58,484 nt of DNA, from positions 1-58,484 of the IMG/VR virus record IMGVR_UViG_3300047380_001405; one strand, 5' to 3'. Both the position numbers and the translations under genes were made by a program. Numbering within the stretch: the stretch's first letter is position 1; each line of letters starts with the position of its first letter. The notes beneath the pieces are model-generated. The model was not told where the DNA came from. It made no database searches and saw only the letters and a list, made by a program, of their open reading frames with translations. Below are positions 33,104 to 45,993 of this stretch, one piece after another. Source of the stretch: a virus (taxonomy: Duplodnaviria > Caudoviricetes).

Positions 33104-33357
33104 AGAACTACAACTATCTGTCTATCAGGTATAACCGTAAGTTTTTCTCCGTTAATTCTTATGTCAGAGCCAGCAGCAGAGTCATAATAAATTTTATCGC
33201 CCTCAGACAAACCCTTAACATTTTCACCAGCTGAAACAACCTCAGCTAATTTATACCGTATAGCTTTGTCAGAAAATTCTGTTATTATAAAACCCCCCTT
33301 ACTTTTAACCTCTTCATTTTCTTTTCTAACAACCACAAATGATCCTATTGCTTTCAT
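33100..33357 (-). CDS. groES: Co-chaperonin GroES
   Basis: KSKGGFII mobile loop, VVSAGENV...EGDKIYY; adjacent to groEL. Confidence 0.8.
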   Translation of the reverse strand: MKAIGSFVVVRKENEEVKSKGGFIITEFSDKAIRYKLAEVVSAGENVKGLSEGDKIYYDSAAGSDIRINGEKLTVIPDRQIVVVL

Positions 33358-34943
33358 GCTCTTTTATTTGATATAGTACAGTTTGTAGTTAAAATTGTTA
33401 TCGAAACCGATATTGCGTTTTGCAGTGCGTTCTTAGTTACCTTGAATGGATCTATAATCCCCATAGAAAACATGTTCCCAAACTTCTTTCTTTTCACATC
33501 AAACCCGTAGTTTCTTCTTCTTACGGTATCTATTTTCTCTACAAATGAATCGTAACTCATTGAAGCGTTTTCTAGTATGTGCTTTATAGGGGAGATTAAT
33601 GCTGCTGATAAAATAGAACAAGCAGCTTTCATTTCATCGTCACTTTCTTTAAAGTATCTGTTATGCATTTCCATAGCTGCATTATACAATGCCACTCCTC
33701 CTCCTGCAACAATTCCTTCTTCAAGAGCAGCACGTGTCGCAAATATAGCATCCTCAACTCTATCCTTCTTCTCTTTCATTTCTACCTCAGTTAGCGCTCC
33801 TACATGTATAGCAGCAATCCCCCCCGAAAGCCTAGAAAGACGATCCTTATAATGCCACTCATTTGAAGAATCATCTTTTTTCTTTAAAATATTTCTAACC
33901 ATCTCAGCTCTTTCTTTAACAGCGTCAGCTGTTTTTTCAGAATTTAAAGTGAGTACAGTTTCTTTTTCTGTTGATACAGTCTTTTTTGCAGTTCCTAAGA
34001 AGCTTTCATCTACAGCAGAAAAGTCATTACCAGTCTCATCAGAAACAACAATAGCCCCCGTCATAATAGCTAGGTCTTCTAAAAGCTCAAATCTATTTAA
34101 CCCGACACCCTCTGGGTTTATGACATTAACCTTGATGACCCCTCTTGTCTTGTTCACATTAAGAAGCTGCATTACATTGTCTTCTATTTCAGAAACAATA
34201 AGTATTGGTTTTTTGTTTTGCATTGCAAACTGACAGCACGGTTCTATATCCTCCCAAGTGTTTATTTTTTTATCTGATATTAAAATAAAAGGATCTTCAA
34301 GAATAGCTTGTTTCTTCTCCACATCTGTAATCATGTATGGACTATGAAATCCTCTTTTAATTCTTGTGCCCTCTAATATTTCTGTGTGTGTATCTTTTGT
34401 CATTGACTCTTCTATAGTCACCACACCCTCTACGCCAACTTTAAGATACGCATCAGCTATAATTTCTCCAAGCTCAGAGTCGTTGTTTGCTGAAATGGTT
34501 GCTACGCTTTTTAAATTTTTTTCTGTAACCTCTCTAGACCTTTTCTTAATCTCTTCAATAACGTCATTCGATAAGGACTCTAGAGAGTTTCTAAGTTTTG
34601 TTACGTTTACGTTTTTTGACTCTATGTATTCAAATGAACGATTGACTAATTCTTGAGTTAGAACGATTGAAGTTGTTGTTCCGTCTCCTGCTTCATCAGC
34701 TGTCTTAATAGACGCTTGCTTTACTACTGTAGCTCCTAAGTGCTCTACGGGGTCTGACAAGTTTATACTCTTGGCAACTGTAACACCATCCTTAGTAACG
34801 TGGGGTCTACCTATTTCATCCTCTAAAATAACTGTATTACCTGCTGCTCCTAGTGTTTGTTTCACAGCATCTGCTAAAGTATCTATTCCTTTTTTTAGGC
34901 TGTGTCTAGCATCTTCATTGAAGTCAATGTTTTTTTCTATCAT
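33354..34943 (-). CDS. groEL: Chaperonin GroEL
   Basis: VTKDGVTVAK, AGDGTTT, ATISANND, KDRVEDA..ATRAALEEGIVAGGG, GIIDP.KV. Confidence 0.95.
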   Translation of the reverse strand: MIEKNIDFNEDARHSLKKGIDTLADAVKQTLGAAGNTVILEDEIGRPHVTKDGVTVAKSINLSDPVEHLGATVVKQASIKTADEAGDGTTTSIVLTQELVNRSFEYIESKNVNVTKLRNSLESLSNDVIEEIKKRSREVTEKNLKSVATISANNDSELGEIIADAYLKVGVEGVVTIEESMTKDTHTEILEGTRIKRGFHSPYMITDVEKKQAILEDPFILISDKKINTWEDIEPCCQFAMQNKKPILIVSEIEDNVMQLLNVNKTRGVIKVNVINPEGVGLNRFELLEDLAIMTGAIVVSDETGNDFSAVDESFLGTAKKTVSTEKETVLTLNSEKTADAVKERAEMVRNILKKKDDSSNEWHYKDRLSRLSGGIAAIHVGALTEVEMKEKKDRVEDAIFATRAALEEGIVAGGGVALYNAAMEMHNRYFKESDDEMKAACSILSAALISPIKHILENASMSYDSFVEKIDTVRRRNYGFDVKRKKFGNMFSMGIIDPFKVTKNALQNAISVSITILTTNCTISNKRA

Positions 34944-36208: not shown

Positions 36209-36703
36209 ATGGAATTGTCAAAAGAACGAATAGAATATTCTCAGAGATACGGAAATAATGCTGAAAGCATTTTTAGAAAGTTTATAGAGTCTAGAGGTCA
36301 CCAAGTAATTGATACGTCTGAATATGAAAACAAGATTGACAAGAAGGATTTCTACGTTGATATAAGTGGTAAACTATTTTCTTTTGATGTAAAAACAAAA
36401 CACTCTGAATCTATTTGGCTTGAGATTAAAAACATTCATAAGTATCCTGGATCACTATATGGGAAACAAACTCACTTTGCTTATTACTACCACAACTTAA
36501 ACATCCTTGCCATAGTTAAAAGAACTGACATGGTTGAATACGTTAAAGAGAACACAATAAAAGAATTCTACAAGGCATCAAAAGGAATACACGTTCCTTA
36601 CCACTACCTCTACAACAGAAAAGGACGTAAAGACATTCTCGTTAAAACCAAAAGAGAATTCCTTATGCTATCCGTTCCCTCCTACAGAGAATATACCTTA
36701 TAA
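36209..36703 (+). CDS. PD-(D/E)XK-family nuclease
   Basis: G..AE..F, DFYV...FDVKT, IWLE motifs. Confidence 0.6.
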   Translation: MELSKERIEYSQRYGNNAESIFRKFIESRGHQVIDTSEYENKIDKKDFYVDISGKLFSFDVKTKHSESIWLEIKNIHKYPGSLYGKQTHFAYYYHNLNILAIVKRTDMVEYVKENTIKEFYKASKGIHVPYHYLYNRKGRKDILVKTKREFLMLSVPSYREYTL

Positions 36704-37706
36704 AAAAACTATACCGCAAATAGCGCTAATTAAAAAAGGGGAGTTTAGGGGGAGAGAGTGTGTTAGACCTCTATAAAAAGATGGCATGAATTTGTGCCAA
36801 ATAACTGCATACATTATAATAGAACGTTAATTGTCTCAAAAGTATGCCACGTTTATATTTAGTGATCAGATATATTGAGGTTCTAGGTTATATATACAAT
36901 ACACGCACGGCAGCCCGTACAAAAACTGACTTTCTCTGACCCACCGCCCCTATTTTTTTATATTATTGTCACCAAATTTTCACCTTTTTGTCCTATATAT
37001 ATACATAAAAGCTAATTTCTACTACCTATAGATGGTTAATCAACAGGTTTTAAGATATTCTGAGATACTGAGAGACCTAGAATAACCCCTACACATTACA
37101 ATCTTTTCCTTAACGTATTGCCCATGTTATTGCATTATTCGTAATCAGCTAACTGGAGGAACTGGATAAAACTTAACACACTATATATCAATAGATTAAG
37201 AAATGCTGAACTGGAGGAAAAAATACAAAACCTATCATTTTCGGTTATATCCATTCGTGTAAATTATATTATTCTCAGTAAATCGATTAAATCGTTATGA
37301 ATATCTCATGAGAATATCGTAATGATTCTGTTAAAAAACTGAGAATCTTTCAACAAAAACAATTTAAGAAAACTTTAACATTGTACATACAAATGTCTGT
37401 TAGGTATTATAAACATTGACGTTAGAAAAATCAATGGTTAAAAATCAGAGCAATCTTAATTTAGATAGCTTTGTTTATTCAGATTCTTTATATAAGATTT
37501 GTGAATCGATTTGGACGGATGCCAATCTGTAGATTACTAATCGAGGGTGCAGAGAAACACTCAGAGATATCAGACCTAGCGGAACGGGAAGCTCGAAATT
37601 CTTACAACAATTGCCAAGATAGGCATGATGGTCGAGCGCCTGCTCCCAATGTTGAATACATCCTCCTCCAGATGGAGATAGGGACTGCGGCTAAGAGCCG
37701 TCAATA

Positions 37707-37847
37707 TTAAGATTAAGTAAGTATATCTGATGATGCTGGAGAGAGACAAAACTCCTAGACTCCTTTCGTAGAGGGGAACCTGTAATGGTCGAAACGTAAA
37801 CGGTATGCGGGCTACGAAAACCCGCTTACGTCATATACTAATCTTAA
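37707..37847 (+). ncRNA. Type I hammerhead ribozyme with an expanded stem II domain
   Basis: Stem I arm UUAAGAUU-(AAGUA)-AGUAUAU 37707-37726; core CUGAUGA 37727-37733; GAAA 37791-37794; stem III CGUAA/UUACG; GUC site with cut after 37832; 3' stem I arm AUAUACUAAUCUUAA 37833-37847. Confidence 0.85.
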
Positions 37848-37858
37848 AATTAATTACA

Positions 37859-38203
37859 ATGAACTTAAATAGCTTAAACAACAGAAAGCCTAATCTAAGA
37901 ACCTATACTGGTTATCTTGAAACAATTCAGAAACATATGAATCCAACGAAAGAGTACACTCACAGAAGTTTTGAAAGACACGAAATTTTTGAACAGGATG
38001 ATAGAACGTTGGTATTAAATATGATTCAATCAACCTATGGAACTGGAGATTGTGATTCTGAAATAACAAACATGCTGTTTGGACTGTTTGATGGTTACTG
38101 GTATGACAGACTTATGACTGATTTGCATGAGTCAAAAATATTCAAACCAAGTACACTAATTGAACTTTCTGAAATACTAGATAGAATAGAAGATTCCATT
38201 TAA
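37859..38203 (+). CDS. Early hypothetical protein
   Basis: Start reassigned to ATG 37859 (MNLNSLNN) by analogy with the other repeat units. Confidence 0.65.
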   Translation: MNLNSLNNRKPNLRTYTGYLETIQKHMNPTKEYTHRSFERHEIFEQDDRTLVLNMIQSTYGTGDCDSEITNMLFGLFDGYWYDRLMTDLHESKIFKPSTLIELSEILDRIEDSI

Positions 38204-38262
38204 TTATGGTCGGAGGGAGCAATCCCTCCAACGTCATATACTAATCTTAAATAATAATTAAA

Positions 38263-38457
38263 ATGGCACAATCAAGATTCACATCAATATTAAACAAAGC
38301 TAGAATTCTTCAAACAATTCATGCAAGTTGGTCACTACAGAAATGTGTTCAGCACCTAGAAAACAAAGGCGTTATAATACTTTCAGAATTTGAAAAAGGT
38401 ATGTTTTATACCCATGACGAAGAAACCTTAATTGGATTCGGTAAGTTATTTAATTAA
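38263..38457 (+). CDS. Early hypothetical protein
   Basis: 64-aa ORF filling repeat unit 2. Confidence 0.6.
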   Translation: MAQSRFTSILNKARILQTIHASWSLQKCVQHLENKGVIILSEFEKGMFYTHDEETLIGFGKLFN

Positions 38458-38514
38458 TTAAAATGGGGAGTTATCGCTCCCCTACGTCATATACTAATCT
38501 TAAAATTAATTACA

Positions 38515-38763
38515 ATGACACTCAAAAAGTTTTATTTAAAAAACTACCCAACAGATGATATGGGTACTGAAATTAATAGTAAATCTACTTTTCAAGGATT
38601 AATGAATACACTCGTTCAAAAAAATGATGTTTATGATTATATCGGTGTAGGAGATTCTATTGTTAGAGAAAGATTGTTTCAAGGATTATCAAAAGAACAA
38701 GTATCAGTTACTGCTGATAGCGATGTTTTTCTTGATATTATATACCATCTTTGGACATCCTAA
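38515..38763 (+). CDS. Early hypothetical protein
   Basis: YPTDDMG...DVYDYIGVGDSIVRERLF; unit 3. Confidence 0.65.
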   Translation: MTLKKFYLKNYPTDDMGTEINSKSTFQGLMNTLVQKNDVYDYIGVGDSIVRERLFQGLSKEQVSVTADSDVFLDIIYHLWTS

Positions 38764-38829
38764 ATTCAAAAGTATAGGGGTAGAAATGCCCCTACGTCAT
38801 ATACTAATCTTAATTTAAATATAAATATT

Positions 38830-39732
38830 ATGAAAACTCTTGTAAACACACACATGAACCATGTAAACAATGACGAAGTAAATGCTATACTAGACCAATT
38901 CGGTTTGAACTGGAAAGTAGAGAAACGTCCATTGTTTTTTCAGGCAACAGAATCAATTGATGTCCCAACAGACTATTTTGGTGTAATCAGAACTGATAAC
39001 AATGATTGTTTTGGTGCTATGACTAATCAATATGAGCCATTTCAAAACTCTGAGTTAGCTGAATTAGTACTAAATATATCTGATGTTATCGATAAGCCTG
39101 TAACACATGGTAAAGTGTTCAAAGGAGGTCGTAGAGTTGCTATGCAAATTGAGTTAGAACCAATCAAGGTTGGTTTTGACACAATCAAACGCTATGCTAC
39201 TGCAATTAATTCTCATGATGGTTCAACGTCATTAAGATGGGGAACTACAGGATACACAGTATCGTGTGACAATCAATTCAGTGCATTACGTAAGGACTTG
39301 CAAAGCAGTGCTAAACACACAGGTAATATGAGACAATTGATTGATAACTCATTCAGGACTCTCGAAAGACTTGAAAAAGCAGACACGACCTTGTATGATA
39401 CGTTTAGAAAAATGACTGAAGTCCCAGTGACAACAGACTTTGTTAATGACGTTATCAAGAAAATCAGCAAAGTTGATTTGAAGACACCTACACGTGAAGC
39501 ACAAAAGTTGTATAGTACTAGAGCAATCAACAAAAGCCAAGACTTATTCTTGTCTACTGCAAAGGAGATGAGTTACAAAGGTCAGACGCTATGGGGATTA
39601 TTCTCAGGTATTACACACTACACTACACACAAAGGTGGTTCAGATAGAACTAGAGAGGAATCAAAGTTAATTGGTGGATTGCAAAAAATCGACCAAACAA
39701 TCTTTGACCAATTCTCTGAACTAGTTTCTTAA
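38830..39732 (+). CDS. DUF932/DUF945-family protein
   Basis: GLNWKVEK.PL, YEPFQN, NSHDGS.S, CDNQ, TLWGLF.GIT.Y..H motifs. Confidence 0.8.
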   Translation: MKTLVNTHMNHVNNDEVNAILDQFGLNWKVEKRPLFFQATESIDVPTDYFGVIRTDNNDCFGAMTNQYEPFQNSELAELVLNISDVIDKPVTHGKVFKGGRRVAMQIELEPIKVGFDTIKRYATAINSHDGSTSLRWGTTGYTVSCDNQFSALRKDLQSSAKHTGNMRQLIDNSFRTLERLEKADTTLYDTFRKMTEVPVTTDFVNDVIKKISKVDLKTPTREAQKLYSTRAINKSQDLFLSTAKEMSYKGQTLWGLFSGITHYTTHKGGSDRTREESKLIGGLQKIDQTIFDQFSELVS

Positions 39733-39789
39733 TTAATCGGGGGGTAGCAATACCCCCTACGTCATATACTAATCTTAATTTAAAACAAA

Positions 39790-39957
39790 ATGAAAGCAAA
39801 TTGGAAAGACAATTTTGAGAGCCTATACAATGACATTGTAGGTGTTGTTACAGTAGATGGCGAAGAGATGACAGATGGAGAGTGTGTTGATGCCTTATTT
39901 AGTGTATTAAAAAAGTATCGAGGCAAATCAGACGAACAGACAGAAGTAAAATTTTAA
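39790..39957 (+). CDS. Early hypothetical protein (55 aa)
   Basis: MKANWKDNFESLYNDIVGVVTVDGEEMTDGECVDALF...; translated by hand; 26 nt after the predicted cut in repeat 5. Confidence 0.6.
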   Translation: MKANWKDNFESLYNDIVGVVTVDGEEMTDGECVDALFSVLKKYRGKSDEQTEVKF

Positions 39958-39972
39958 CTTAAATTAAATAAA

Positions 39973-40128
39973 ATGAAACGTAAAATAGTTTTTATACAAT
40001 ACAATGTTTGGAATGATAAATATCAGATCGTAGATAGTTGGTTTCCACCGAAAAAAATAATAAAGGAATTCAAATATCATGCGAGTGCTATTAAATACAA
40101 ATCCAAATACAATCAGGGGCTAATTTAA
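39973..40128 (+). CDS. Early hypothetical protein (51 aa)
   Basis: MKRKIVFIQYNVWNDKYQIVDSW...; translated by hand; AT-rich start context. Confidence 0.5.
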   Translation: MKRKIVFIQYNVWNDKYQIVDSWFPPKKIIKEFKYHASAIKYKSKYNQGLI

Positions 40129-40164
40129 GCCCCTACGTCATATACTAATCTTAATTAAAATCAT

Positions 40165-40599
40165 ATGAAAATTGATTACATCAAGTATGAAAAATCTCAT
40201 GGTGGTAGAGAAAACTATTTTCCTGTAGGTAGGAAAAAAGACTTAGTTGGTGATTGTGCTATTAGGGCAATCGCATTGGCACTAGAGATGGATTATATGC
40301 AAGTGCTGAGAGAACTCATGAATTTAGCAGTTGAAAAATTTGGTATACCATATGCTAACAGTCAACGAGTTTATGAGGATTACTTAAACAGTAAAGGATG
40401 GGTGAAAAAACCCCTGAAAGAAGGTAAAACGTGGAAACCTTTATACAAACACAAGCGTAGATTAGAACAGAACAAAAACTATATATTCTATGTTAGAGTT
40501 GGTTATCAAACACATCTTACTTCTGTAGTAAAAGGAATCAATAAAGATACATGGCTATGTCAAGATAGAATGGCGTATGCTATGTACGATAAACCTTAA
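40165..40599 (+). CDS. Early protein of the DC.IRA family
   Basis: GDCAIRAIALA...HLTSV..G...DTW; possible Cys-His-Asp triad. Confidence 0.6.
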   Translation: MKIDYIKYEKSHGGRENYFPVGRKKDLVGDCAIRAIALALEMDYMQVLRELMNLAVEKFGIPYANSQRVYEDYLNSKGWVKKPLKEGKTWKPLYKHKRRLEQNKNYIFYVRVGYQTHLTSVVKGINKDTWLCQDRMAYAMYDKP

Positions 40600-40665
40600 T
40601 TTAAATCGAGGGGTGTATTAACATCCCTCACGTCATATACTAATCTTAAATTAAATATAAATATT

Positions 40666-41187
40666 ATGAATGCAATAGAATTAATTAAAAAAGAGATTCG
40701 AATATTCGAATCAAAAGTGACTGCTAGGGAATTAGCTGAGGCAATCAAGATGGTTACAGTAGACCTCATAGATGAACTCGCAGAACTATATGAACACGAT
40801 GATGAAGACCAAATTGAATTAGTTAATGGCTTTGTGCTACACCAGTCATCAGAAGATGGTGGCGGGTGTGTGGATATTGTCCACGAAGAGGATTGGTTTA
40901 ATGTCATTAACTGTTCTATATCAGAAGACACTCAAAGTGTTTGTTTTGACCCTGTCGAAAAGTCAGAAGTCATCACAGAGGCTATTAAAATAGCGAACAG
41001 AAAGACTTTTATCTTAAAACAAACAGTATCATATGAAGTGAAACTAGAAGTGGAGGATGAAAGTGTGGAAGATGTTATTGCAAAAGCAGAAAATGGAGAG
41101 TTTGATGAAGATTTATGTTACCTTGAAACTGAGTTTAAAGCAATAGATTCAAGAGAGTATGAATTTTCTGCTAGTGAAAAAGAATAA
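40666..41187 (+). CDS. Early highly acidic protein
   Basis: 173 aa, very Asp/Glu rich; unit 7. Confidence 0.6.
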   Translation: MNAIELIKKEIRIFESKVTARELAEAIKMVTVDLIDELAELYEHDDEDQIELVNGFVLHQSSEDGGGCVDIVHEEDWFNVINCSISEDTQSVCFDPVEKSEVITEAIKIANRKTFILKQTVSYEVKLEVEDESVEDVIAKAENGEFDEDLCYLETEFKAIDSREYEFSASEKE

Positions 41188-41242
41188 TTTAAAAGGGGAC
41201 TTCGTGTCCCCTACGTCATATACTAATCTTAAATTAAATAAA

Positions 41243-41476
41243 ATGGAAATTAATTTAACACCACAGGACGTGGTAAAAATGTCTGAGAACAAGGTTAATG
41301 AATGCTTTGATATATTCAAAGAGCCATTAAACTTAGAGGAGGCAAGTAGCCTTATTAATGCAATTCTTCCGCAATTAGAACAGGTAATATCTGACACGTT
41401 GCAGGAGCAGATTTATGATGACCTCATGGATAAGAATGGAGGTCATGATTGGATTGACGAAAAGCTGTCGAAATGA
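41243..41476 (+). CDS. Early hypothetical protein
   Basis: Start reassigned to ATG 41243 (MEINLTPQ), after repeat 8. Confidence 0.6.
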   Translation: MEINLTPQDVVKMSENKVNECFDIFKEPLNLEEASSLINAILPQLEQVISDTLQEQIYDDLMDKNGGHDWIDEKLSK

Positions 41477-41670
41477 CAATACTAGATATGCAACGGCTAG
41501 GAAATTCAGGGGAGGAAATTGTTTCTCTCCTGAATGATATAATTCATAGTGTTAAAAACAAAAAGTCTATAGACGGCTACAAGTTTGAAAACAATAATGA
41601 AAGGATAGAGCATATAGAAGAAACTACTTCTATGATTCTTCAACAATTATGTAATTTAAAATTAAAATAA
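41473..41670 (+). CDS. Hypothetical protein
   Basis: ATGA-coupled 65-aa ORF. Confidence 0.55.
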   Translation: MTILDMQRLGNSGEEIVSLLNDIIHSVKNKKSIDGYKFENNNERIEHIEETTSMILQQLCNLKLK

Positions 41671-41671
41671 T

Positions 41672-41902
41672 ATGAATAAACTAGAAACAATTAAAGGATA
41701 CTACGCTAAGAAAGATAACCTCTACCTGTCCTATAAAAACACATGGACGAAGGATATTAGAAAAGCAGTACTGTTTGATCATAAAGAATCAGCAGGAGAT
41801 TCAATTGCAAGACGACCCTCTGGAAGAGTCGTAGTGTCTATTGATGTAAATCATGTTGTTGATAAGAGAACAGAGTATGAAAACATCGAAACAGATGTTT
41901 AA
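41672..41902 (+). CDS. Hypothetical protein
   Basis: 76-aa ORF ending just before the hairpin and ribozyme. Confidence 0.55.
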   Translation: MNKLETIKGYYAKKDNLYLSYKNTWTKDIRKAVLFDHKESAGDSIARRPSGRVVVSIDVNHVVDKRTEYENIETDV

Positions 41903-41933
41903 ACCCAACAATTATGGGAGGAGCAATCCTCCC

Positions 41934-41984
41934 TCTGTCGATAGGTGTGTGCCTATCCTGATGAGTCCGAAAGGACGAAACAGA
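41934..41984 (+). ncRNA. Type III hammerhead ribozyme
   Basis: UCUG-UC^ (cut after 41939), stem I GAUAGG-UGUGUG-CCUAUC, core CUGAUGA 41958-41964, stem II GUCC-GAAA-GGAC, then GAAA-CAGA; all core nucleotides canonical. Confidence 0.95.
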
Positions 41985-42009
41985 ATTATTAATTAAACAA
42001 TAAACAATT

Positions 42010-42267
42010 ATGAGATATCCACCTTATGAAACAAACCCATTCGTAGATGTATGGGACAATTCAGTATCAGATACTGCCCACGAAATCAGCAAAGATTTAA
42101 TGGAAATGATAGAAGAAAAAGTAAGAGAACACGTTGAGGAGTATTTCGATATTCCTCCACAGTGGAGAGATGAAGTCAAAGAACACGAAGATGACTTCAT
42201 TGAAGATGTAATAACTGAAGTAATGAGTAAAATTAAAAAAGATGATGATAAGAGAATCACAAGCTGA
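42010..42267 (+). CDS. Early acidic hypothetical protein
   Basis: 85-aa acidic ORF after the ribozyme. Confidence 0.6.
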   Translation: MRYPPYETNPFVDVWDNSVSDTAHEISKDLMEMIEEKVREHVEEYFDIPPQWRDEVKEHEDDFIEDVITEVMSKIKKDDDKRITS

Positions 42268-42502: not shown

Positions 42503-42512
42503 CTTGCAAACA

Positions 42513-42552
42513 AAATAGGGGAAGCCGAAAACCTTACAGAGTAGGCGTATTT
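42513..42552 (+). ncRNA. Small pseudoknotted RNA motif, RAGATH-18-like
   Basis: AAAUA-GGGG-AA-GCC-GAAAA-CCUU-ACAGAGUA-GGC-G-UAUUU: GGGG/CCUU and GCC/GGC cross-pairing; family assignment is from memory of the consensus. Confidence 0.45.
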
Positions 42553-42565
42553 AAATTTTAATATA

Positions 42566-45912: not shown

Positions 45913-45993
45913 TTTGGTTTAGTATATAACACTTGGCAACTAAGGGGGGCATTGCAAGTCTGCCCCCTGTCAAGTAAATTAAAATAAAATTTA

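Follow-up and report, generated by a model that had tools for sequence, protein, structure and literature searches.

A predicted type III hammerhead ribozyme and a putative one-enzyme, many-substrate type I hammerhead at gene junctions of an uncultured marine phage

The small-gene block and the hammerhead at junction 9

The window analysed here is the IMG/VR record IMGVR_UViG_3300047380_001405 at its full length (58,484 bp, 91% complete by estimate) and is the nearly complete genome of an uncultured marine phage. Between approximately 36.2 and 52.3 kb the plus strand carries the genes, most of them small open reading frames (ORFs) without known families; the block at approximately 37.8-42.3 kb has no minus-strand genes. 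Nine gene junctions in this block carry a hairpin followed by a GUC (Table 1). The subject of this report is the ninth, at which the GUC belongs to a predicted type III hammerhead ribozyme, and its relation to the first eight, which share a sequence of 20 nucleotides (nt) and may be served by a single catalytic strand, the enzyme strand, encoded beside the first of them. One large protein of the window matches the crAss-virus muzzle protein family, and the RNA-labelled sequencing runs that hold parts of the window carry the sample labels marine or seawater. No nucleotide match to 36700-42100 was returned by blastn against deposited phage genomes, and ARAGORN called no transfer RNA (tRNA) in the whole window.

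The junction 9 element is located between the stop codon of the ORF at 41672-41902 and an AUG at 42010. Its hairpin, GGGAGGA-GCAA-UCCUCCC, has 7 base pairs (bp; G41916-A41922 with U41927-C41933) and a GCAA loop; stem III of the hammerhead follows it with zero gap. The 5' strand of stem III and the cut site read UCUGUC (41934-41939), with C41939 as C17; UCUGU (41934-41938) pairs with ACAGA (41980-41984) in an open stem of 5 bp. Stem I (41940-41957) is formed by GAUAGG and CCUAUC (6 bp, loop UGUGUG), and stem II (41965-41976) is GUCC-GAAA-GGAC (4 bp). The core segments CUGAUGA (41958-41964) and GAA (41977-41979) align to the core columns of the Rfam model, and every invariant core position is present (C3 U4 G5 A6 N7 G8 A9 and G12 A13 A14). 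The NUH triplet is G41937 U41938 C41939, the U16.1-A15.1 pair is U41938-A41980, and the G10.1-C11.1 pair is G41965-C41976. A comparison with the Rfam type III family had been proposed as a check: in a 301-nt search, RF00008 (Hammerhead_3) covers 41932-41986 over its full model (1-54), with 45.4 bits and an E-value of 4.8e-9. As this score lies under the curated threshold, a scan of the whole window at gathering thresholds omits the element and returns a DUF805b motif only. None of 200 shuffles folds as well as the region itself (z -3.98), whose minimum-energy fold contains the upstream hairpin and stems I and II.

The original prediction, made from the letters alone, held that this hairpin closely resembles the one at junction 2 (unit 2), that a GUC follows at almost the same distance, and that at junction 9 this GUC is part of a type III hammerhead. 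All three statements stand. The two hairpins are both 7-bp stems with GCAA loops and agree at 14 of 18 positions; the four differences form two compensating pairs, and so a 3-mismatch search returns unit 2 only. The cut site lies 6 nt from the hairpin in both cases.

Relatives were collected with an alignment of the 300-amino-acid protein (38830-39732; hereafter the 300-aa protein) and its homologue on contig L011; this search returned 14 viral loci, and identity is 53-61% for 13 of these. At two loci, L243 and L244, a type III hammerhead is found directly upstream of the 300-aa gene, scoring 48.1 and 47.8 bits, both just below the Rfam threshold. In an alignment of junction 9 with these two, every one of the 45 cells (15 pairs in three sequences) shows standard pairing, and compensatory changes, altering both partners, are found at 8 of the 15 pairs. 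None of 500 shuffles reaches this pairing and covariation, and slid-partner controls pair at 27-40%. A GC-rich hairpin abuts stem III on its 5' side in all three sequences, and the loops are UGUGUG or UGAGUG (loop I) and GAAA or AAAA (loop II). A near-identical contig (L009/L242) has the same junction 9 sequence and, being identical, adds nothing. By sequence and covariation, junction 9 is very probably a genuine type III hammerhead; it is a further example of the known clustered phage and prophage hammerheads.

The substrate-only junctions and the enzyme strand

The first eight junctions carry eight exact copies of the 20-mer ACGUCAUAUACUAAUCUUAA, all on the plus strand between 37828 and 41232 (expected number 0.01; 8 copies reached in 0 of 100 shuffles). 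Each copy lies 0-2 nt after a hairpin of variable sequence and 11-19 nt before an AUG, with an AU-rich spacer in between; at junction 6 the hairpin overlaps the stop codon of the upstream ORF. Column conservation is 8/8 over exactly 20 positions and drops on both flanks, beginning at the first base of stem III and ending where complementarity to 37707-37715 ends. The distance from the end of the hairpin to the cut site is 7 nt at the first junction (unit 1), 6 nt at junctions 2-6 and 8 and at junction 9, and 5 nt at junction 7. The copies are confined to the 3.4 kb immediately following the enzyme strand, and no 20-mer stands before the other plus-strand genes, up to 52 kb. Within 250 nt upstream of sites 2-8 a CUGA-N-GA core motif is absent in seven of seven cases; site 1 has the sole one.

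The enzyme strand lies immediately upstream of the first 20-mer, within approximately 1.1 kb without credible ORFs, and reads UUAAGAUUA-AGUAA-GUAUAU-CUGAUGA, a 57-nt domain, and GAAACGU. The 5' strand of stem I is made up of UUAAGAUUA, the bulge AGUAA, and GUAUAU, and complements UAAUCUUAA and AUAUAC of the 20-mer (9 + 6 bp around the 5-nt bulge). The core CUGAUGA (37727-37733) is followed by an extra U, GAA occupies 37791-37793, and ACGU (37794-37797) pairs as stem III with ACGU (37828-37831), C37832 being C17. Because both arms complement the stem I and stem III parts of the 20-mer, unit 1 reads as a complete type I hammerhead; its stem III extends across an internal loop into the adjacent hairpin. 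All eight sites complement both arms of the strand, and sites 2-8 are the unit 1 structure minus everything 5' of the stem III internal loop. In cofolds of the enzyme strand with each of the seven other substrates, the 3' arm of the substrate pairs with 37707-37715 in 7/7; the bulged enzyme site went unranked in a duplex-energy scan. In addition, AUGAUG (37730-37735), in the core region of the enzyme strand, can pair with CGUCAU of the substrate and does so in 4/7 cofolds; this is presumably an alternative, inactive pairing.

The stem II domain (37735-37790) is elaborated and has three hairpins. Between A9 and G12 it consists of the extra U, a G able to pair with C37790 (G10.1-C11.1), two inserted hairpins, and ACC-UGUAAU-GGU. 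The last of these matches the plain stem II of type I ribozymes in relatives, GACC-UGUAU-GGUC in L244 and GACC-UUAU-GGUC in L252. The enzyme stem I comprises approximately 15 bp versus approximately 6 bp in the cis ribozymes of relatives.

A second lineage repeats the layout with other arms. The contig L011/L255, whose 300-aa protein is 53% identical to that of the window, has four junctions of the same build, in which a hairpin is followed by CCUC or UCUC and then by AUUUAAC-UAAUCUU. The contig begins too late to include any enzyme, no hammerhead core is present on the plus strand of L255, and Rfam returned nothing on L011. An enzyme of the form GUUAAAU-CUGAUGA...GAAAGG was predicted from these sites before it was found, and a metagenome scan with the substrate 18-mer then led to L327, which overlaps L255 by 123 nt at 100% identity. 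L327 reads ...AGAUUAA-GUUAAAU-CUGAUGA-[stem II domain]-GAAAGGG-[hairpin]-CCCUC|AUUUAAC...; it carries the predicted enzyme exactly and, after it and ahead of the 300-aa gene, a second junction of the substrate-only kind. Since L255 has no core, the second lineage (L327 plus L255) amounts to one enzyme and six substrates, and all six sites match the arms of the L327 enzyme. Opposite the GGG of that enzyme, substrate position 16.3 is C or U in 6/6 sites and position 16.4 is C or U in 5/6, and one site has a 5-nt insertion exactly at the internal loop of stem I.

Between the window and L327, stem III changes from ACGU:ACGU to AGGG:CCCU (compensating at 2 of 4 pairs, as read by eye) and stem I from GUAUAU:AUAUAC to GUUAAAU:AUUUAAC (at least one compensating pair and one inserted pair). 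Two pairs are swapped in hairpin P2.1 (GA/UC to UG/CA) and two in hairpin P2.2; no change affects the loop AGAGACAAAA or the ancestral stem II hairpin. RNAalifold recovers P2.1, P2.2, P2.3 and the distal part of stem I, with 6 pairs kept through two-sided changes. A strain variant, known from an 801-nt contig, differs in the core by T37731A, at the only free core position (N7), and in P2.1 by two compensating doubles (G37738T with T37756A, A37740G with T37753C); one bulge change and one loop change are additional. The pairing of all these sites supports the assignment of the eight upstream junctions as predicted substrate halves of a type I hammerhead, matching the second lineage, and to that extent the earlier reading of hairpin-plus-GUC junctions as RNA cut points is upheld.

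A third lineage may exist; pattern scans of viral contigs and prokaryote genomes found none. Short enzyme patterns gave chance matches only among the matches listed for viral contigs; the fully specified predicted enzyme gave 3 matches there, all by chance, and the conserved stem II pattern gave 2 chance matches. The substrate 16-mer returned L270 only, which is a shorter copy of L255. Stem II-type patterns in prokaryote genomes gave 0 matches in one form and at least 120 chance matches in another.

Table 1. Positions of the hairpins, predicted cut sites and catalytic strands of the nine junctions in the window.
Feature	Parts	Span	Strand	Predicted cut	Basis
Junction 9 hairpin	GGGAGGA-GCAA-UCCUCCC	41916-41933	+		Sequence, minimum-energy fold
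Junction 9, predicted complete type III hammerhead		41934-41984	+	After C41939	Rfam RF00008, covariation
Putative enzyme strand of the type I hammerhead, the only one in the window		37707-37797	+		Arm complementarity, fold, lineage comparison
Unit 1 (junction 1)	Distal stem III hairpin 37807-37825, cis 20-mer 37828-37847	37807-37847	+	After C37832	
Junction 2, no local core	Hairpin 38212-38229, 20-mer 38231-38250	38212-38250	+	After C38235	
Junction 3	Hairpin 38465-38482, 20-mer 38484-38503	38465-38503	+	After C38488	
Junction 4, upstream of the 300-aa gene	Hairpin 38777-38792, 20-mer 38794-38813	38777-38813	+	After C38798	
Junction 5, downstream of the 300-aa gene	GCAA hairpin 39739-39758, 20-mer 39759-39778	39739-39778	+	After C39763	
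Junction 6	Hairpin 40116-40133, 20-mer 40135-40154	40116-40154	+	After C40139	
Junction 7	Hairpin 40608-40629, 20-mer 40630-40649	40608-40649	+	After C40634	
Junction 8	Hairpin 41195-41211, 20-mer 41213-41232	41195-41232	+	After C41217	

Exchangeable junction elements and neighbouring features

The two junctions that flank the 300-aa gene were compared across 13 related loci. Substrate-only sites are present on both sides in the window and in L327/L255. A type I hammerhead is found upstream of the gene in L251 and L252 and downstream in L244, in addition to the two type III examples described above. A conserved long hairpin takes the upstream position in L245-L248, L253 and L254 and the downstream position in L246-L248, L251, L252 and L254; this element (L252, 2021-2100) measures approximately 70 nt, is built of an 18-bp hairpin capped by GAAA (z -5.6) and, after it, a second, small hairpin, and may be a site for a double-strand-specific ribonuclease (RNase). 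Downstream of the gene, L243, L245, L249 and L250 carry a T-arm-like hairpin (GGUUCGAUUCC), and a tRNA-Arg(UCU) gene is present in the operon of 6/13 loci. As relatives hold different elements at junctions beside the same gene, the junction elements are in all likelihood interchangeable RNA-processing modules. The proposal that core-less sites and complete ribozymes replace one another is thus seen in practice, at the junctions flanking the 300-aa gene. In every type I ribozyme of the relatives the hairpin before the GUC is stem III, which gives the origin of the hairpin-plus-GUC layout of the window.

The T-arm-like hairpins (L243, 5671-5712) read GGGAGG-UUCGAUU-CCUCCC flanked by GGAUAG...CUAUCCA. 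The acceptor-like closure is obtained by reading the sequence and does not occur in the minimum-energy fold, and neither ARAGORN nor Rfam called these hairpins tRNA. Their stem sequence equals that of the junction 9 hairpin. In L243-L254 the AUG of as many as 9 genes per locus is immediately preceded by the motif UUAAACUAUAUAAU, and a small hairpin whose loop is AU-rich often stands before the motif; this leader is absent from the window.

The small ORFs beside junction 9 have no homologue in 15 related loci (tblastn), so that an equivalent junction is definable around the 300-aa gene only; the comparison with related phages that had been suggested could be carried through there and not for junction 9 itself. 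Junction 9 had also been taken as the most distal junction, keeping its own catalyst. It is the last of the hairpin-plus-GUC series and carries a complete ribozyme, but it is not the last of the operon, with more junctions at 42503-42565 and 45913-45993, and it does not look retained: the ribozyme is of type III, whereas the core-less sites derive from type I. Junction 9 resembles a separate cassette rather than a surviving copy of the same module, its nearest counterparts being the cassettes that precede the 300-aa gene in L243 and L244.

The next intergenic gap of the operon (42503-42565), with a small ORF on each side, is filled by the DUF805b motif of Rfam (42515-42547, plus strand, 42.7 bits, threshold 35.6), which folds no better than shuffles (z 0.21) and may be another junction element. 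A further junction at 45913-45993 (plus strand) has the GC hairpin GGGGGCA...UGCCCCC followed by UGUC; the hairpin sits inside a longer imperfect one (z -2.2), and neither a hammerhead core nearby nor complementarity to the arms of 37707-37797 was found. Upstream of the enzyme strand, approximately 1 kb without credible ORFs (36704-37700, plus strand) is partly conserved between the two lineages (L327, minus strand, 575-1338) and could contain promoters, an origin or a larger structured RNA. A GroEL/Cpn60-family chaperonin is encoded at 33354-34943 (minus strand, 216 bits). The 801-nt contig of the variant strain covers 37360-38129 at a depth of 18.8, versus approximately 2 for the rest of the phage in the same run. 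Its first 31 letters repeat the other end (joint 38129 - T - 37359), as in a circular or tandem 771-nt form, and its boundaries are not at predicted hammerhead sites.

Interpretation and comparison with known systems

The best explanation for these features, and a moderately probable one as a whole, is that junction 9 would be cut in cis and junctions 1-8 by a distributed type I hammerhead. Transcription of the plus-strand small-gene block would probably yield a polycistronic RNA that hammerhead chemistry divides between genes. At junction 9 the self-contained hammerhead would cut after C41939; the upstream messenger RNA (mRNA) would then end in the GC hairpin plus six nt with a 2',3'-cyclic phosphate, and the downstream mRNA would start with a 5'-OH and the folded ribozyme body, 25 nt before its AUG. 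For junctions 1-8 the enzyme strand would supply the 5' arm of stem I, the CUGAUGA core, the elaborated stem II, GAA and ACGU, and each junction the hairpin with ACGUC, the cut site and AUAUAC-UAAUCUUAA. Unit 1 would fold in cis. Sites 2-8 would be captured by the enzyme strand either distantly on the same transcript or in trans after unit 1 has cut, with the local hairpin probably stacking on the short stem III and mimicking unit 1 with a nicked internal loop. That one enzyme strand serves sites 2-8 is judged somewhat probable. Whether the RNA of 37707-37797 is a true enzyme, which frees itself at unit 1 and cuts seven further sites with turnover, is evenly poised. Cleavage, turnover and a stabilising role of the terminal hairpins and end chemistry are inferred from the layout.

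Several points weigh against this explanation. Junction 9 scores 3 bits below the Rfam curated cut-off of 48.5, and its minimum-energy fold lacks stem III, the CUG of the core pairing with CAG instead. Unit 1 matches no Rfam hammerhead model at E-values up to 10 (a search of 36700-37900 that returned nothing at all), and its spacing is non-canonical, with the extra U after A9 and an insertion of approximately 42 nt in stem II; a viroid hammerhead with one additional core nucleotide has reportedly been described. In the enzyme-substrate cofolds the lowest-energy structure lacks the hammerhead junction. With trans substrates stem III has 4 bp only, the ACGUC strand that stays on the cut unit 1 fragment competes with substrates arriving from the other sites, and a stem I of 15 bp may slow product release. 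The evidence base consists of two lineages and one strain variant, and the use of remote sites by one enzyme strand has no known precedent. Finally, contigs from four RNA-labelled runs (assembled, depth 2-7, giving neither ends nor strand, DNA carry-over being possible) bridge unit 1, junctions 2, 3, 5 and 7, and junction 9 (41869-42128) uncut; such bridging contigs show neither cleavage nor its absence.

The alternative that survives best accepts junction 9 as real and unit 1 as acting in cis only, and takes the other seven sites as regulatory cassettes (promoter or leader plus stem-loop) or as targets of a protein RNase; in that case the arms of the enzyme strand would do no more than keep in step with the neighbouring copy. 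Promoter-stem-loop cassettes occur in T4-type phages, perfect identity over 20 nt before each small early gene resembles phage promoters, the 20-mer contains TATACT, and the uncut state of five such sites in the RNA-run contigs would be expected. The covariation between lineages would likewise follow if the repeat had another function and the enzyme tracked its cis copy. This alternative is nevertheless unlikely, and what counts against it is largely also what argues that the remote sites truly pair. None of the eight 20-mers overlaps a sigma-70-like promoter call, no -35 region is conserved, and no plus-strand terminator is called at the hairpins. The copies keep to the stretch directly downstream of the enzyme strand and are missing from the other plus-strand genes. 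Conservation starts and stops where pairing does, and the C/U variation opposite G of the second-lineage enzyme and the 5-nt insertion at the stem I bulge suit RNA pairing rather than a contiguous DNA motif. At the same junctions relatives hold RNA-processing elements and not a 20-mer motif, and the stem I of the enzyme strand is far longer than that of the relatives' cis-only ribozymes.

It is very unlikely that the junction hairpins, including 41916-41933, are terminators or attenuators with the GUC nearby by coincidence and the junction 9 ribozyme independent of its hairpin. The hairpins are GC-rich and stand right after stop codons, and those at junctions 3, 4, 6, 8 and 9 are called terminator-like, but on the minus strand only, in a block without minus-strand genes, and no U-run follows them. 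Moreover, in 9/9 junctions the cut site follows the hairpin at a constant distance of 5-7 nt, the corresponding hairpin of type I ribozymes in relatives is their stem III, and a hairpin abutting stem III is kept in 3/3 type III homologues. A reading of 41934-41984 as a match by chance or as a hammerhead-like relic without activity, which the sub-threshold score and the one RNA-run contig spanning junction 9 uncut might suggest, is highly improbable given the complete invariant core with its G10.1-C11.1 and A15.1-U16.1 pairs, the Rfam E-value, and the preserved and compensated pairing in three homologues.

The proposed combination of a cis-acting junction 9 with a distributed type I hammerhead has parallels in several known systems. 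The discontinuous hammerhead of Clec2 is reportedly due to Martick et al. 2008, and classical trans-cleaving hammerhead designs are said to come from Uhlenbeck and from Haseloff-Gerlach. For junction 9 the closest parallel is the set of tandem hammerheads flanking prophage genes, which cut approximately 2-kb polycistronic transcripts in vitro, according to the sections considered of Perreault et al. 2011 (PMC3088659). Like the phage and prophage type III hammerheads (RF00008) treated in those sections, junction 9 has a canonical core, an open stem III and an intergenic position in a phage operon; unlike the examples given there, it scores below the Rfam threshold, abuts a GC hairpin and stands among substrate-only sites.

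For the enzyme strand, the parallel is the split hammerhead in the 3' untranslated region of rodent Clec2 genes, in which enzyme and substrate segments are likewise apart on one transcript (PMC2920678, in the part of that commentary drawn on here). That part raises, as speculation only, that the enzyme portion might act on other substrate-only RNAs, and poses natural trans action by a hammerhead as an open question. As described there, Clec2 has one enzyme and one substrate per mRNA, in mammals; the phage has one enzyme for 8 substrates (6 in the second lineage), and, unlike in Clec2, enzyme and substrates co-vary between lineages and lie at the gene junctions of an operon. Engineered trans hammerheads have extended or discontinuous stems I and tertiary stabilising motifs (PMC3064770, in the extract used). 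The enzyme strand resembles them in the two-arm recognition of a NUH substrate and in a long stem I with an internal bulge. It differs in being natural, in combining a 4-bp stem III with a hairpin borne by the substrate, and in its two extra stem II hairpins. A 2019 review (PMC6765202), in the portion consulted, describes small nucleolytic ribozymes as cis-acting and leaves their role in phages open. In open-access papers and bioRxiv no report of a natural multi-substrate hammerhead was found.

A layout in which one enzyme strand faces many cut sites that lack a core, and which recurs with re-matched arms in a second lineage, is new. If the proposal is true, this would be the first natural trans-cleaving hammerhead and a phage RNA endonuclease whose specificity co-evolves with its targets, and it would show self-cleaving ribozymes losing their cores at most sites while being served by one master copy. 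With one enzyme, eight identical substrates and a re-armed second lineage, which eases specificity swaps, it is a compact and testable case.

T7 early RNA is cut between cistrons by host RNase III, and polycistronic RNAs are punctuated by tRNAs. The scheme proposed here is similar in that a polycistronic early transcript would be cut between genes into products ending in hairpins, and, as in those systems, relatives hold an 18-bp hairpin, a tRNA-Arg gene or T-arm-like elements at the same junctions. Phage early operons would draw on two hammerhead types, on long hairpins and on tRNA-like elements as cassettes for intercistronic processing that can replace one another, which bears on what the many hammerheads near phage genes do. 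Unlike in the T7/RNase III system, the catalyst in the window would be an RNA encoded by the phage.

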